Of a stretch of DNA of 64,000 nucleotides, positions 18,041-23,850 are shown piece after piece. Below the pieces are notes generated by a model. It did no database searches and was not told the origin of the DNA. It was given only the letters and a program-made list of their open reading frames with translations. The position numbers and the translations under genes were made by a program. The number at the start of each line of letters is the position of its first letter. The stretch's first letter is position 1. The stretch is from positions 3,488,001 through 3,552,000 of the forward strand of contig OY769902.1 in NCBI GenBank assembly GCA_963669175.1, written 5' to 3'. Source of the DNA: a bacterium. GTDB taxonomy: Bacteria > Electryoneota > Electryoneia > Electryoneales > Electryoneaceae.

Positions 18041-19210
18041 ATGTTCGTTATTGTTCTGCTCACGGCGGTGCTGATTGGTTTTGGCGCTTGGGAATTTACA
18101 GTGCACCGCAGGCGCGTGATGTCGATCCCGATTCGCATCCACGTCAACGGCACCCGTGGGAAAAGCTCAGTTACCCGCCTGATTGCCTCTGGTCTTAGAG
18201 CCGGTGGGTTCCGCACTCTGGCCAAAGTAACCGGTACTCTCCCTCGTATCATTGATGAGCGAGGAATGGAGATACCGATCATCCGGTTACATATGGTCAA
18301 CATCATCGAACAGACCAAAGTCTTCCGATTCTTCGCCAACAGGCGACCACAAGCTATTGTGATCGAGTGTATGGCTGTTCAACCGGAATACCAGTGGATC
18401 TGTGAACACCAGTTCGTCACTGCAACGCTTGGCGTGATTACCAACGCCCGCATGGACCATGTTCGTGAAATGGGACCTTCCCTTGAGAACATCGCGAACT
18501 CGCTTTCCAATACGGTCCCTGCTGGCGCCACGGCAATCACCGCAGAAAACAAACCTGATCTGTTAAAGATCATGGAAAAGCGTGCAAAGGAGAACAAGAG
18601 CGATTTTGTCGCAGTCAATAGTGATGATGTAACGGATGACGACCTTCGTCGTTTCCGGTACATTGAACATCCGGACAATGTTGCCCTTGCACTTAGGGTT
18701 TGTGACGAGCTGGGAATTGATCGTGAAACGGCCTTGAAAGGCATGGTTGAGATGCATCCTGACCCGGGTGCACTGCATGTCCATCGGGTTGAGCATGATG
18801 GGAAGAAAATGATCTTCCTGAATGCGCTAGCCGCCAACGATCCGGAATCCACTCTGATGGCGTGGAAACGAGCCCTCGAGCTATATCCCAATAGCGGGAA
18901 ACAGATATTGTTGTTGAACTCACGTGGTGACCGTTTTGACCGAAGCGTACAACTGGTTGAGATGGTTGGCAAATACATGACGTTTGACCGCATGATTTCC
19001 ATGGGCGAGAGCACAGAGATGCTTGCACCGCATTTCAAACGGTTCGGTGTTCCATCCGAGAAGATTAATCGCGTGGGACAGTTGAAACCGGACAAAGCCT
19101 GGGATGCCATCTGGAGCGAAGTCGAAGATCGCGCCTTTGTTTTCGCATTAGGTAATGCCGGTCACGGCGGCCTGGCAGTGGCAGACTTGTTTAAAGCGCG
19201 CAGGAGCTGA
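18041..19210 (+). CDS. pgsB: Poly-gamma-glutamate synthase PgsB/CapB
   Basis: IRIHVNGTRGKSSVTRLIA, VIECMAVQP, ITN.R.DH, HPDN, ANDPEST. Confidence 0.96.
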   Translation: MFVIVLLTAVLIGFGAWEFTVHRRRVMSIPIRIHVNGTRGKSSVTRLIASGLRAGGFRTLAKVTGTLPRIIDERGMEIPIIRLHMVNIIEQTKVFRFFANRRPQAIVIECMAVQPEYQWICEHQFVTATLGVITNARMDHVREMGPSLENIANSLSNTVPAGATAITAENKPDLLKIMEKRAKENKSDFVAVNSDDVTDDDLRRFRYIEHPDNVALALRVCDELGIDRETALKGMVEMHPDPGALHVHRVEHDGKKMIFLNALAANDPESTLMAWKRALELYPNSGKQILLLNSRGDRFDRSVQLVEMVGKYMTFDRMISMGESTEMLAPHFKRFGVPSEKINRVGQLKPDKAWDAIWSEVEDRAFVFALGNAGHGGLAVADLFKARRS

Positions 19211-19212
19211 GC

Positions 19213-19665
19213 ATGGTTGATGTAGCAGTCGGTCTCGGGGTAGCGTTCAGCCTGTTGTTTAACGAAATCTTCGGTGTTTCCGCCGGCGGTATCGTTGTTC
19301 CGGGTTATGTTGCGCTTCACCTGAACAACATCTGGATGCTGGTCGGCACTTTGGTCGTCAGCTTTCTTACCTTTTTCTCCGTTCGCATTATATCGCAGTT
19401 TGTGTTCATATATGGACGGCGGAGACTGGTATTGTCGATTCTCCTCGGATTCATTTTTGGTTTCCTGCTGCGTAATTACATAGCCGGTCCCATTTACGAA
19501 TCCACGGCTGTACATCTTGAGGGGATCGGGTATATTATTCCCGGTCTGATTGCTAACTGGATGGAACGCCAGGGAGTGTTGCGAACGATTTCAGCAGTAA
19601 CAACAGCTTCTGTTGTTGTTCGCCTGGCCGTTATGATTATCGGAGGAGGAAAGATCATTGCCTAG
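19213..19665 (+). CDS. pgsC: Poly-gamma-glutamate biosynthesis protein PgsC/CapC
   Basis: G.SAGGIVVPGY, YGRRR, IGYIIPGLIANW..RQG. Confidence 0.96.
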   Translation: MVDVAVGLGVAFSLLFNEIFGVSAGGIVVPGYVALHLNNIWMLVGTLVVSFLTFFSVRIISQFVFIYGRRRLVLSILLGFIFGFLLRNYIAGPIYESTAVHLEGIGYIIPGLIANWMERQGVLRTISAVTTASVVVRLAVMIIGGGKIIA

Positions 19666-20785
19666 ACGATTCCGTCCTTCGATGCGTTCACAGAGAACGC
19701 TGATCATTCTCGGGGTAGTTTCCATACTCTGTTACCTGTGGGCTGAAAACTCGCTGGTTACCCTGGAAGCCCCCCATTTCGCAGAAAAAGTCAGCGCGGC
19801 ACAGCGCATGAGCGCCATGATGGACACGTTGCGCCAGGTTCAATACGCTCGTGGTATTTTCCCGGACGAGATAAACGACCCCAACCTGACAGCGCTGATT
19901 GGTCAGCAATACACAAAGATCACAACCGACATCGGTGACCTTGAAGCCAAATGGACAGCCTTGAATCCGAACATGGCTGCTGTGATGGTTGAGTATTTCA
20001 AGGAAGCCGGCCTGGTTTCTGGTGACGTGGTTGCAGCAGGTATTACCGGATCTCTTCCGGGGATGAACCTTGCATTCTATGCAGCATGCGAGGAGCTTGG
20101 TCTGCATCCGATTGTAATCACCTCGATTGGCGCTTCGTCCTGGGGCGCTAATGACCCCAGCTTCACTTGGCTGGACATGGAACAGAGCCTGATCGAACGT
20201 GGCATGGTCAAGTTCGTTTCAGTTGCTTCTTCCACTGGTGGTGGTGAAGACCTTGGTCGGCGTCTATCCCCTGAAGGTCGTGAACTGATCCGTCAAGCTG
20301 CCGAACGCAATGAAGTTCCTTTCATTGAAGAGGCGACAGTCGAGCAGTCTGTTGAAAAACGTATACAATTATACACAGAACACTCGCAGGGCGCCCCGAT
20401 AAAATTGTATGTTAATATTGGTGGCGGACTGGCATCATTGGGAAGCGCTGTGAACGGCGACTTGATTCCGCCAGGCCTGTCACAAAGACTGCCTGTATAT
20501 AATTATCCTCGTCGTGGCGCTATTAACATGTATGCAGACAGTGGTGTCCCGGTATTGCAGATCCTGAATATTGCAGACATCGCAAAGCAGTTCGATCTCC
20601 CCCGCACACCGGAACCGTTACCGGAAGCAGGTGAAGGTCGTCTGTTCAGTGAAGAACGATACAACTTGTGGGTAACTGTTGCAGCATTCATTATTGTAAT
20701 GATTACCCTGACAGTTGTTTTATACTTTGACCGGCGGACCCAGCGGCTGAATCGGCCGGGGGTAGATCCTGATACATTGATGTGA
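19658..20785 (+). CDS. pgsW: Poly-gamma-glutamate system protein PgsW
   Basis: DPN.T.LIG..ITT..GDLEAK.T..NPN, GS.PG.N, SIGASSWGAN, YVNIGG; N- and C-terminal TM segments; follows pgsBC. Confidence 0.88.
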   Translation: MPRRFRPSMRSQRTLIILGVVSILCYLWAENSLVTLEAPHFAEKVSAAQRMSAMMDTLRQVQYARGIFPDEINDPNLTALIGQQYTKITTDIGDLEAKWTALNPNMAAVMVEYFKEAGLVSGDVVAAGITGSLPGMNLAFYAACEELGLHPIVITSIGASSWGANDPSFTWLDMEQSLIERGMVKFVSVASSTGGGEDLGRRLSPEGRELIRQAAERNEVPFIEEATVEQSVEKRIQLYTEHSQGAPIKLYVNIGGGLASLGSAVNGDLIPPGLSQRLPVYNYPRRGAINMYADSGVPVLQILNIADIAKQFDLPRTPEPLPEAGEGRLFSEERYNLWVTVAAFIIVMITLTVVLYFDRRTQRLNRPGVDPDTLM

Positions 20786-20789
20786 TGAG

Positions 20790-21743
20790 ATGACTACGCT
20801 TCCCCGCAAAAAGATGTTTGTGGTTCGTCGGCTGCATGTAATTGCGGCCGGCTTGAGCCTGTTACTGCTATCGCTGTCAATGGCGGTCGCCGCACAGTGG
20901 GATGTTATTCGCCCTGCTAAAGGCGGTAGAAGAACCGTTCTGGTGATTGAAGACAAGGAATGGGCCTACTGGCGACTGAAACCCGGTCAGAGCATGTCAT
21001 TTGATCTGCAACCAGGTGAGTACAGGGTTATTACCCGCGCTGATTTGAGTGACACGAAACGGAAAGAAAGCACCTATACTTTCCGTATTGGCATTGATGA
21101 TCCCAAAGGCCGGTTATACAGCCGTGCCACCAGCAGGGATAAACAATCCCATGCGCGTGGCAAGGATCAATCTCGCATCGGAAAAAGCCGTACTGTCTAT
21201 CTGACATCGGAAAACGGCAACCAGACCATGACGATCAGCCTTGGCAAGGAAGCGCCACGCCCTGTCTATTTCAGGGTACAGGTGGAAGCCAAAGCTTATC
21301 GTTCAGGCACTGAGTACGTCGCTGTTACACCCAGCAGCTATCGTGACGCCCATAGCATCGCTACGAACGAAGACATCAACACGTATTACGCTGTTGATGA
21401 GGAACAACGTCTGACACTGGATGTTAACGGTCCGACGACGATAAGAGTGCTGGCGCGTTTAATGCTGGATGAAAGCATGCGCGGAGAAATCAAGTTCCCG
21501 TTGCAGGTTTTCGAAGACGGCGCCTTGAAAAACACGTATTCGCTGACGACCAGTGCATCACAGGTGTCCACTCTTATGGACAGGAACGATGTGCTTCCAT
21601 CACGCGGCGAATCTTTCTTTATCGAGGTACCTCGCGGACGTCATAAATACAACTTCGTTCCACCTGAGCGCCAGTTTGAGATCATGCTTCGGTTCTTCTT
21701 GCCGGAAGATGATCTCACCAACGAGCCTACCGCAGGCAAATAA
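20790..21743 (+). CDS. Exported hypothetical protein with two repeated beta-rich domains
   Basis: Signal peptide ending AVAA; internal repeat (YWRLKPGQSMSFDLQPGEYRVITR vs YYAVDEEQRLTLDVNGPTTIRVLAR); starts 4 nt after the pgsW stop. Confidence 0.75.
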   Translation: MTTLPRKKMFVVRRLHVIAAGLSLLLLSLSMAVAAQWDVIRPAKGGRRTVLVIEDKEWAYWRLKPGQSMSFDLQPGEYRVITRADLSDTKRKESTYTFRIGIDDPKGRLYSRATSRDKQSHARGKDQSRIGKSRTVYLTSENGNQTMTISLGKEAPRPVYFRVQVEAKAYRSGTEYVAVTPSSYRDAHSIATNEDINTYYAVDEEQRLTLDVNGPTTIRVLARLMLDESMRGEIKFPLQVFEDGALKNTYSLTTSASQVSTLMDRNDVLPSRGESFFIEVPRGRHKYNFVPPERQFEIMLRFFLPEDDLTNEPTAGK

Positions 21744-21773
21744 GCGGTATTCGTTTGTCAAGTTTGAATTTTC

Positions 21774-21810
21774 AAGGCCTGCATGAAGACAAAGCGGGCC
21801 TTTATTGTTT
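21774..21810 (+). terminator. Possible hairpin/terminator between exported protein and beta-barrel gene
   Basis: AAGGCCTGC...GCGGGCCTT followed by TATTGTTT. Confidence 0.4.
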
Positions 21811-21891
21811 ATATTAGCATTAGTGGATTGAGTCACATGGATCGATCCACTTGATACGGCACACTTTGATTGTCAGCATGGGGAGTGAACC

Positions 21892-23001
21892 ATGAAAAAG
21901 ACACGCATCCGGCACGGTTTCGCAACACTGTTGATTGGCGCATTAACCGTTTCCATGATCCTGCCAGTACAATCCATGGCGCGTGCCTGGAACTGGAAAA
22001 AGGACACTGGTTTCAGCATCACCTACACCAGCGGTTACGACAGTAACATCCTTGAGTTAAGCGATGACGATATTGACCGGTTCGAGAACAATGAACTCCC
22101 CGGCTCAACTTCGCCCTCTACCTACGATGACCTGGTTCAGAATTTCGGCGCCAAGTTTAAGATCTACTCGCCCAAATACCTGGATTTCCGGCGCACACGG
22201 CTGTTTTACACGTTCGGTTACCAGTCATTTGCCGGGAACAAATACAACGATCGCGTCAGCCACTCCCTGTTCCTGATGCAGGACATTACCCGGAAAGTGG
22301 ACCTGGTGGCGAGTTATTTCTGGATTCCACAACGGTATCTGCGTGACTATTATGATCGCGACATGGGGCATATCTATCCCTGTGAATTCACCTATCACCT
22401 GTACTCGGCAGGATTACGTTTCCAGGTTACCAAACAGATTCGCCTGGACGGCCGCTACGAAGGCTACCAGGTGTATTACAACAGGTACTTCACGGAATAC
22501 GATTCCGAATCCAATGGTTTTCGCGTTGGACTCCAGGTGAAGGTTCTGCCCAAGTTGGTCTTTGATGGTGATGTCCGGTATCGTTGGGCGGATAATGTGG
22601 GCTTCGATCAAAATGAGATCGTGGCAAACAATGCTTCTCTTCTTGACGCGGAATATGGCGATGGCAGCTACGGAGAAGAATGGTTCGAGTACGGCTTGTC
22701 CTGGGAAACCCCTGAACTCCTTAATCGCACATGGGATGTGCAGGTGACTCACAGGTTACGGCATCGTTACTACACCAGCGACATGTCACTGGAAGATGAT
22801 CCGTTCCATGCTGGACGTGAACACTTGCAGCAGCGACTGTTTCTTGATGTGAACACCAGCATCGTTTCGGGACTGAGCGGCGGCATCGCACTCGAGTATG
22901 AGTGGCGTCGTACTGACTCACCAAACGATAAGGTTCCCGTAGTGAAGGACTTTGACGCCTACAGGGCCATGTTAAACTTCACAATCGAGATTTGGGATTG
23001 A
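21892..23001 (+). CDS. Outer-membrane beta-barrel protein (polymer-export barrel-like)
   Basis: Signal peptide, N-terminal GYDSNI motif, alternating Tyr/aromatic strands, C-terminal strand RAMLNFTIEIWD. Confidence 0.75.
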   Translation: MKKTRIRHGFATLLIGALTVSMILPVQSMARAWNWKKDTGFSITYTSGYDSNILELSDDDIDRFENNELPGSTSPSTYDDLVQNFGAKFKIYSPKYLDFRRTRLFYTFGYQSFAGNKYNDRVSHSLFLMQDITRKVDLVASYFWIPQRYLRDYYDRDMGHIYPCEFTYHLYSAGLRFQVTKQIRLDGRYEGYQVYYNRYFTEYDSESNGFRVGLQVKVLPKLVFDGDVRYRWADNVGFDQNEIVANNASLLDAEYGDGSYGEEWFEYGLSWETPELLNRTWDVQVTHRLRHRYYTSDMSLEDDPFHAGREHLQQRLFLDVNTSIVSGLSGGIALEYEWRRTDSPNDKVPVVKDFDAYRAMLNFTIEIWD

Positions 23002-23850
23002 TTCGATCCGATAGACAGTTTTCCGGGGGACGTGCCATCTTTGGTACGTCCTCTTTTTCTTCAAAGGACTGGGTTGGTACTTTCTATCCACCAGGGATAA
23101 AAATCGACCAACTTCATCGCCCATTATGCTACTATTTTCCCTTCTATTGAGATTGACGCGACCTATTACGGTGTCCCACGTGAAAGTATGATACAGGAAT
23201 TCATCGATAAAACACCGGAAAGCTTCATCATCTCAGCCAAGTTCCCAGGTGAAATCGTCCATGCCGGCAAATCATACACTCCCGATATTGCAAAGCTGCT
23301 GATCCCTGAATACACATATGAGACGCGTGATACCTTCCTCGAACGCATGGCAAAAATTGGCCCACGACTTGGTCCTCTCCTGCTGCAGTTCCCCTACTTC
23401 TCCAAGCGGCTATATAGTAATGCTGGGCCGTTTGTGGAAAGACTGGAACAATTTCTTTCAGATCTTCCGCAGATGCCTTTCAGGTATGCAGTTGAAATCA
23501 GGAATAGAACATGGTTGACAACACGTTTTATGGATATGCTTCGTAGGTACAATGTCGCGCTGGCATTGACTGATCATCCCTGGATGCCCCATGGTGATGA
23601 AATGCGATTCGATCCTGTGACAACTGACTTTGTTTACATCCGTCTTCTTGGCGATAGAAAAGCCATTGAGGAGATTACAACTTCTTGGGATAAAGTCGTT
23701 GTGGACAATTCTGACAGGATCGAACGATGGGCAAGCCTGATCAGAAAACTGGTTGAACGGGATCTTGTGGTGTACACCTATTCCAATAACCATTATTCCG
23801 GTCATGCGCCTGCCACGACGCGACAGTTAATGGAATTGGTGGAAAGGTAA
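22998..23850 (+). pseudogene. DUF72 family protein, frameshifted in an A5 run at 23099-23103 (or a sequencing error)
   Basis: The frame from TTG 22998 gives GTSSFSSKDWVGTFYP. The +1 frame continues STNFIAHYATIFPSIEIDATYY and runs into ORF 23188..23850 (LLLQFP, YAVEIRN, YIRLLG, NNHYSGHAP). Confidence 0.8.

Follow-up and report, generated by a model that had tools for sequence, protein, structure and literature searches.

Organisation of the locus

A five-gene locus for poly-gamma-glutamate (PGA) lies in a bacterial genome of the Electryoneota (assembly GCA_963669175.1, contig OY769902.1), within a stretch of 64,000 nucleotides that we refer to as the window (C1:3488001-3552000). The locus, at approximately C1:3506041-3511001, comprises three synthase genes and two further genes whose products are candidates for moving the polymer across the outer membrane. 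According to the list of open reading frames (ORFs) for the window, all five share one orientation on the forward strand, in the order pgsB, pgsC, pgsW, ORF4 and a barrel gene. In window positions, pgsB (18041..19210, +) encodes a PGA synthase of 389 amino acids (aa), an ATP-dependent amide ligase with an N-terminal membrane anchor, and pgsC (19213..19665, +) encodes a small polytopic membrane subunit of 150 aa. The third gene, pgsW (19658..20785, +; 375 aa), begins at a TTG codon and overlaps pgsC by 8 nucleotides (nt). ORF4 (20790..21743, +) starts 4 nt past the pgsW stop codon and encodes a secreted protein of 317 aa; beyond a spacer of 148 nt (21744..21891, +) follows the barrel gene (21892..23001, +), the 369-aa product of which is modelled as a 14-stranded outer-membrane beta-barrel. 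An earlier reading of this DNA from sequence only (the sequence-only reading) had described five co-oriented genes, tight coupling of pgsBCW and a signal-peptide protein beginning 4 nt after pgsW, all of which agrees with the gene coordinates, with the overlap between pgsC and pgsW and with the single N-terminal hydrophobic segment of ORF4.

Just past the barrel stop codon is an intrinsic-terminator-like hairpin (23025..23054, +) with a 13-bp stem, seven G-C pairs and a T-run; judged by its sequence, this is probably a strong terminator that closes a five-gene operon. No terminator-like site was present on the forward strand of the spacer at 21744-21891. The spacer does contain a weak promoter-like match (9/12) at 21786-21815 (+), and the number of such matches across the region is not above that in shuffled sequence. 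Upstream, the locus is flanked by secA on the opposite strand, and a DUF72 gene lies beyond the terminator.

The synthase genes

The first three proteins are members of curated NCBIfam families, with scores of 434.1 bits for PgsB against TIGR04012 (cut-off 222.7), 123 bits for PgsC against TIGR04011 (cut-off 96.45) and 328 bits for PgsW against TIGR04332, named 'poly-gamma-glutamate system protein' (cut-off 100). PgsB has a Mur_ligase_M domain (Pfam) and one hydrophobic segment, at its N-terminus (residues 1-22). PgsC also matches PF14102 (E 5e-35) and contains several hydrophobic segments. PgsW has one such segment at each end (residues 15-34 and 335-359), between which a periplasmic domain of about 300 aa is predicted, and it occupies the position held by PgsA/CapA in Bacillus. 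We aligned it across phyla (alignment A4); a profile search of the PDB returned no match for PgsW, and the Atlas gave no lead to its fold.

TIGR04332 has a single match in this genome. The absence of capA/pgsA and capD from the window, which the sequence-only reading had reported, is borne out, since all genomic matches to PF09587 (PgsA/CapA; C1:913191, 2758801 and 3178181) and the sole match to PF01019 (CapD/GGT; C1:3623139, about 112 kb from the locus) lie outside it.

Three families of the same phylum (f2, f3 and f6) possess a second, shorter gene of the PgsW family that lacks the C-terminal membrane segment (for example, L029 4134-5120 and L030 4006-4983, both on the minus strand). At L029 (1587-6901) the short gene stands amid genes for a gamma-glutamyltranspeptidase (PF01019, E 4e-131), a DctM-like permease and an AstE/AspA-like enzyme, and from this gene content the neighbourhood looks like a cluster for gamma-glutamyl breakdown or uptake.

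ORF4

ORF4 matched no Pfam or NCBIfam family above cut-off; the sole match, DUF4340, reached 17.5 bits against a cut-off of 25. Its only hydrophobic segment is N-terminal and fits a cleaved signal peptide. The structural model (pLDDT 88.6) consists of two beta-jelly-rolls, at residues ~34-172 and ~173-310, both of which resemble carbohydrate-binding modules (CBMs) of the CBM6/35/36/51 type (Z 8-10) and, in addition, the first binding module of BcsB (Z 7.7). The likeness to CBMs (CBM6/35/36/51/22) is one of fold in both domains, with no accompanying match in Pfam or in a profile search of the PDB, where the three matches returned were at chance level (E >0.3).

The protein is characteristically basic. 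Net charge is positive in 60 of 64 relatives, with a median of +13.5 (+4 in the window's protein), and that of the first domain is positive in 63 of 64 (+12 in the window's); 13 positions are lysine or arginine in at least 75% of the family. The binding-module fold and the basic charge together suggest that ORF4 would bind a polyanion, and we propose that it is a periplasmic, polyanion-binding adaptor of the barrel.

The barrel

The last protein of the locus likewise matched no Pfam or NCBIfam family above cut-off, and it founds a family for which neither database holds a model. The AlphaFold2 model (pLDDT 88.2, pTM 0.80) has 14 strands, in accordance with the earlier designation of this protein as a beta-barrel with an N-terminal GYDSNI motif, which is found at residues 48-53. 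The general features of outer-membrane barrels are present: one N-terminal hydrophobic segment that fits a cleaved signal peptide, amphipathic strands, short periplasmic turns and an aromatic C-terminal signal. The final three residues include an aromatic one in 52 of 64 members; in the window's protein they are IWD. In structural comparisons (Foldseek and VIA-align) the top match was CymA (Z 23.2, 279 residues aligned, root-mean-square deviation 3.5), followed by OmpG (Z 20.0); sequence identity to these two is 8-12%. FadL-type and BAM-associated 14-stranded barrels gave Z of 16-17, the exopolysaccharide secretins BcsC, PgaA and PelB 13.0-13.4, and OMPLA 10.3. A profile search of the PDB with the barrel found no match.

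We examined the family through an alignment of 64 sequences from several phyla (A7). The faces of the strands alternate, with hydrophobic values of 0.40-0.71 on one side and 0.11-0.28 on the polar side, and positions facing the lumen carry about 16.5 lysines or arginines and 15.5 aspartates or glutamates per sequence. Net charge is positive in the periplasmic turns and negative in the outer loops. Conservation is higher in outer loops L4 (0.79), L1 (0.67) and L6 (0.60) than in the strands (0.43), and all seven invariant residues (N52, S57, E202, D204, H306, R309 and R339) map to outer strand ends or outer loops of the model. On their modelled position, these residues could form a gate, a metal site or a catalytic site.

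The sequence-only reading had likened the barrel to EpsX/VpsM-like proteins of exopolysaccharide loci. This likeness is not supported: PF10082 (BBP2_2), which we take to be the closest stand-in for such barrels, matched 3 of the 64 members below threshold (best E 0.065) and the window's protein not at all. An Atlas cluster with 43% PF10082 members had scored 0.97 to the barrel, as had a second cluster with 32% members of PF04575 (SlipAM/Slam), a family absent from the 25 listed for the 64 members at E <=1. Pfam scans of the 64 members confirmed neither of these leads.

Conservation within the phylum

Among 41 genomes of the phylum (the window's own and 40 relatives), the barrel, TIGR04332 and ORF4 each occur in 39, and the two genomes without them, G002 and G012 (94% and 92% complete, both of one genus), lack all three. 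Eighteen loci representing all seven families of the phylum have the order pgsB-pgsC-pgsW-ORF4-barrel on one strand without exception (18/18). Two close relatives differ in what their contigs contain: in G009 the barrel is on one contig (C22) and pgsW with ORF4 on another (C33), and at L116 (7001-15125) no barrel was found within 7 kb downstream of ORF4.

Conservation in other phyla

A profile search with the barrel recovered 757 cluster representatives at E <=1e-3, and 162 at E <=1e-30, among 1.84 billion. With eight distant members as queries against species-representative genomes, we then took the best 80 of 114 confirmed loci, labelled Acidobacteriota, Ignavibacteria, Bacteroidales and kin, Fibrobacteraceae, Eisenbacteria and Krumholzibacteriia. 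Loci were scanned with profiles for pgsB, pgsC and pgsW derived from the in-phylum loci, for ORF4 from alignment A2 and for the barrel from alignment A1. All five families were present in 68 of these 80 barrel-centred loci, and in 62 of the 63 that extend at least 5 kb upstream. In the sole exception, L106, pgsW is on a different contig of the same genome; the other 11 incomplete loci are ended by contig edges and keep the expected order as far as they go. The canonical order is found in 64 of the 68 complete loci. In Eisenbacteria the barrel stands upstream of pgsBCW-ORF4, a permuted arrangement that is still one cluster.

The converse search began from PgsW, with an 8-row alignment as query against metagenomes, and yielded 492 confirmed loci. 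We kept the best 80, in which PgsW shares 42% identity or more with that of the window. Of the 52 loci with at least 2.3 kb of downstream sequence, 51 have both ORF4 and the barrel, and pgsB with pgsC occur in all 52 that have sufficient sequence upstream. A phylum in which the genes are patchy gave the same result at the level of presence and absence. Across 201 genomes of the phylum of G045 (Bacteroidales-labelled), TIGR04332 occurs in five, the barrel in four and ORF4 in the same four; all four are among the five with pgsW, both genes adjoin pgsW in each, and neither was found in the 196 genomes without pgsW. Hence the downstream pair accompanies pgsBCW in its own phylum, in other phyla and in one where the cassette is patchy, far beyond the genome from which the sequence-only reading had supposed their linkage.

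In some lineages the two downstream proteins are joined. Among 146 new barrel representatives listed, 20 have a length of 440 aa or more and end in the barrel, and 15 of these 20 carry ORF4-type domains N-terminal to it. An ORF4-barrel fusion occurs in 9 of the 80 barrel-centred genome loci, all of Acidobacteriota type plus L106, and the Acidobacteriota-type loci encode it in addition to a free ORF4. One fusion, P0136 (644 aa), is encoded on a 12.18-Mb contig. It begins with a single signal peptide, is free of hydrophobic stretches further in, and reaches the first barrel strand through a linker of about 30 residues. Outer-membrane barrels have their N-terminus on the periplasmic side; since the ORF4 module is N-terminal in the fusions, it would therefore lie beneath the barrel.

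A second kind of fusion was considered in Eisenbacteria, where PgsW and ORF4 form a single 706-aa frame (L107 16114-18234, +). The case is weak, as loss of a stop codon would explain it equally well: the frame retains both the C-terminal membrane segment of PgsW and the signal peptide of ORF4, and the related loci L103 and L110 have separate genes. At L102 (3784-6195, +), of Fibrobacteraceae, the pgsB frame is 803 aa long with the PgsB match at 416-801, which is either an extension or an artefact of choosing the longest ORF. L061, labelled 'Clostridia bacterium', has the full cassette including the barrel; the label may be wrong or the contig mis-binned.

Loci labelled Bacteroidota, Ignavibacteria, Fibrobacteraceae and Eisenbacteria have additional genes with the cassette (L154 1424-5203 and 10258-13712; L103 4273-13669; also L152 and L145). 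On the upstream side they encode a C25 (gingipain-family) peptidase of about 1260 aa that ends in a type IX secretion system (T9SS) sorting tail, and on the downstream side an LVIVD-repeat propeller, a membrane acyltransferase like HGSNAT/DUF1624 and an uncharacterised protein. These genes are missing from all 18 in-phylum loci and from all eight Acidobacteriota-type loci; the window gave no tblastn match to any of them, nor did the acyltransferase seed match anywhere in the genome.

A proposed export cassette

We are highly confident that the five genes constitute one functional unit, because the synthase proteins exceed curated cut-offs, the junctions are tight, one terminator follows, the genes occur together across phyla, fusions join them, and folds and charges are concordant. 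That the role of this unit is export through the barrel is a narrower claim, which we judge somewhat more probable than its negation. In the best explanation available, the locus is the minimal form, which we call Class I, of a five-gene, envelope-spanning PGA cassette of two-membrane bacteria.

On this explanation, PgsB and PgsC would polymerise glutamate at the inner membrane, as their homology implies, and PgsW, in place of Bacillus PgsA, would take up the chain on the periplasmic side. ORF4, as a basic jelly-roll pair at the periplasmic face of the barrel, an association backed by the natural fusions, would bind the polyanion through the fold and charge described above and either dock on the barrel or be fused to it. 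The unbranched chain could then exit through the barrel, in which the lumen is polar and highly charged, the periplasmic turns are basic and the acidic outer loops are unusually conserved. Polymerisation itself may supply the push, as in synthase-dependent exopolysaccharide systems.

A stronger form of the proposal, to which we assign an even chance, is that in ORF4 and the barrel we have the first outer-membrane translocon dedicated to a polyamide, a kind of polymer distinct from sugars and ribosomal proteins alike. Its parts would be unrelated to the exopolysaccharide secretins, with basic tandem binding modules tethered under a 14-stranded barrel and the invariant outer-loop residues serving as a gate or processing site, and the cassette would have spread as a unit through at least five to six phylum-level lineages of two-membrane bacteria.

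Comparison with known systems

The Bacillus system (PgsBCA(E)/CapBCADE) shares with this locus an equivalog-level PgsB and PgsC and, next to them, a third membrane protein with an external domain. Here, however, that protein is PgsW rather than PgsA/CapA, no CapD/GGT is encoded at the locus, and two genes are added that would serve an outer membrane, which Bacillus lacks. The annotated pgsB-pgsC-pgsW cassette (TIGR04012/TIGR04011/TIGR04332) is represented by all three models above cut-off; it ends at pgsW, whereas this locus and the other Class I loci examined continue with two more conserved genes.

A likeness of plan is found in synthase-dependent exopolysaccharide secretion (AlgK/AlgE, PgaA/PgaB, BcsB/BcsC and PelB/PelC), which likewise combines an inner-membrane synthase, a periplasmic polymer handler and a dedicated barrel encoded with the synthase, the periplasmic part and barrel being separate or fused; the ORF4 domains, as noted, resemble the carbohydrate-binding modules of BcsB. 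The enzyme here is a Mur-ligase-type amide ligase making a polyamide, not a glycosyltransferase. There is no tetratricopeptide repeat (TPR) scaffold: a Pfam scan found no TPR family in ORF4 or the barrel, and ORF4 is all-beta. The barrels of AlgE, PgaA and BcsC have 16-18 strands against 14 in our model, which BcsC, PgaA and PelB match with Z of only about 13, and neither PDB profile nor Pfam searches detected any sequence relation between the secretins and the barrel. The system would work like synthase-dependent exopolysaccharide secretion but is not a member of it.

The sequence-only reading had proposed this architecture by analogy to alginate export. Its layout of synthase, periplasmic protein and barrel is well supported, because the genes occur together, the barrel is modelled as such and ORF4 is naturally fused to it, but the analogies to AlgK and to EpsX/VpsM are not supported in detail. 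In place of the TPR protein AlgK, the tandem CBM-type jelly-rolls of the ORF4 model suggest the binding modules of BcsB or AlgX as the better analogy, and in place of AlgE the barrel resembles CymA and OmpG. These are monomeric 14-stranded channels for uptake or diffusion, and match the barrel over nearly its whole length. They differ from it in being partnerless, in their low sequence identity and in the conservation of outer loops, which is a feature of the barrel described here.

Class II loci and other limits to the proposal

Several observations weigh against the proposed export through the barrel. In a sample of 201 Acidobacteriota genomes, pgsW occurs in nine and the barrel family in five, and both together in only two. 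The seven pgsW genomes without a barrel, and G198 from the sample of the G045 phylum, possess a different locus, which we call Class II, with another accessory set after pgsBCW: DUF6305, a polytopic permease like DctM/CitMHS and an AstE/AspA-like enzyme, with neither ORF4 nor the barrel, as annotated at three of them (L191 3569-9530; L195 4720-12566; L197 4736-10716). L195 has an additional C69 peptidase (one case), L192 has ORFs of like size and L193 a propeller protein. Judging by their gene content, Class II loci are pgsBCW loci of two-membrane phyla that appear to be devoid of any outer-membrane component, and since they lack the module, it is no general need of the synthase. The downstream pair that the sequence-only reading had linked to pgsBCW was found in 51 of 52 metagenome loci and is missing from Class II. 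A PgsW tree separates the classes: six of the eight Class II sequences form their own clade (SH-aLRT 99), with G198 nested among those of Acidobacteriota; Class I sequences stand apart (support 89), and L196 and L198, on long branches, are unplaced. The outer-membrane module therefore follows one lineage of the cassette and not every two-membrane PgsBCW system.

The remaining three barrel hits of the Acidobacteriota sample are in genomes without pgsW and are distant paralogues with other neighbours (L200 4749-8340; L199 3974-8163; L201 524-6786). That of L200 is preceded by a 797-aa TPR protein with a TPR_Slam match, with an S9 peptidase near; those of L199 and L201 are preceded by large CarboxypepD_reg/TIG proteins, and at L201 an ABC exporter and a PGA_cap (CapA-family) gene adjoin the paralogue. 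The wider barrel superfamily is therefore not restricted to pgs loci.

Further points on the same side concern the samples, the window and the barrel itself. Both out-of-phylum samples are lists of the best 80 loci and hence consist of the stronger relatives. In 129 of 140 other loci, 60 nt or fewer separate ORF4 from the barrel, which makes the 148 nt of the window unusual. CymA and OmpG, the top fold matches of the modelled barrel, are channels of uptake or diffusion, and the most conserved parts of the barrel are its net acidic outer loops, unlike what would be expected of a simple pore for a polyanion. Finally, in the literature as far as it was found, PGA has been shown in no organism that carries the cassette.

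Alternative explanations

The main rival to export is that the barrel processes or anchors PGA at the surface, as an outer-membrane enzyme or anchor that cleaves, transfers or tethers the polymer in a CapD-like role, with ORF4 presenting the chain. Some outer-membrane barrels have an active site that faces outwards (OMPLA, PagL and OmpT), and the invariant serine, histidine and acidic residues among others (N52, S57, E202, D204 and H306) are all on outer loops, three of which (L4, L1 and L6) are conserved above the strands. No CapD/GGT is encoded at the locus, and the cassettes of other phyla add surface enzymes, namely the C25 peptidase with its T9SS tail and the acyltransferase. The fold, however, is nearest to open 14-stranded channels (CymA and OmpG at Z 23.2 and 20.0, OMPLA at 10.3), and the polar, heavily charged strand positions that face the lumen resemble those of a channel filled with water. 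Moreover, a processed polymer must still pass the outer membrane, for which the locus offers no other candidate. We consider this explanation unlikely, at about one part in five of our belief.

A less probable alternative concerns the product: a ligase of PgsBCW type might make some other gamma-linked or modified polymer or oligomer, which the module would handle in place of free PGA. The literature found contains no chemical evidence of PGA in these phyla; PgsW stands in place of PgsA, the acyltransferase accompanies the cassette in other phyla, and Class II loci suggest different fates for the product. Against this, PgsB and PgsC are equivalog-level and far above their cut-offs, and the basic charge of ORF4 suits a polyanion. 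We think a different product improbable.

Slightly more improbable still is uptake or recycling, in which the barrel would import, and ORF4 would bind in the periplasm, glutamate, gamma-glutamyl peptides or pieces of PGA that feed or recycle the polymer. Uptake channels head the list of fold matches, ORF4 has the fold of a binding module, and both PgsW-family paralogues and Class II loci adjoin permeases, gamma-glutamyltranspeptidase and peptidases. These catabolic-looking genes, however, accompany the class that has no barrel; Class I loci have no inner-membrane permease or peptidase beside the barrel, and a protein covalently joined to the barrel, as ORF4 is in some lineages, is unsuited to shuttling. 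That ORF4 and the barrel are unrelated envelope genes which merely happen to lie downstream, as the 148-nt gap and the weak promoter-like match before the barrel might suggest, is already contradicted by linkage that extends over several phyla, survives permutation of gene order, shows matched presence and absence and includes fusions, and we regard it as very remote.

Significance

PGA has been studied almost entirely in Bacillus, which has a single membrane. In the literature that our search could reach, no outer-membrane route for PGA was found described, in keeping with what the sequence-only reading had supposed, nor was either of the downstream families. The words 'outer membrane' and 'export' do not occur in the accessible part of the text of a 2024 review of PGA, the reference list of which, so far as accessible, cites Fusobacterium nucleatum as the first Gram-negative PGA producer. 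TIGR04332 or its name was found in one paper among the texts accessible, where a table attaches it to a capA gene as annotation, and searches of the same reach for pgsB together with the phyla concerned found nothing relevant.

For the exit of PGA from two-membrane cells of this kind, ORF4 and the barrel offer the best candidate. They are two concrete, clonable genes, conserved together, sometimes fused, and distinct from the class of pgsBCW locus that lacks them, and the question of how PGA crosses the outer membrane is therefore directly testable. The finding may also assist the engineering of PGA secretion in Gram-negative production hosts, and it hints at many uncultured lineages of sediment, sludge and gut as makers of PGA or a polymer akin to it.

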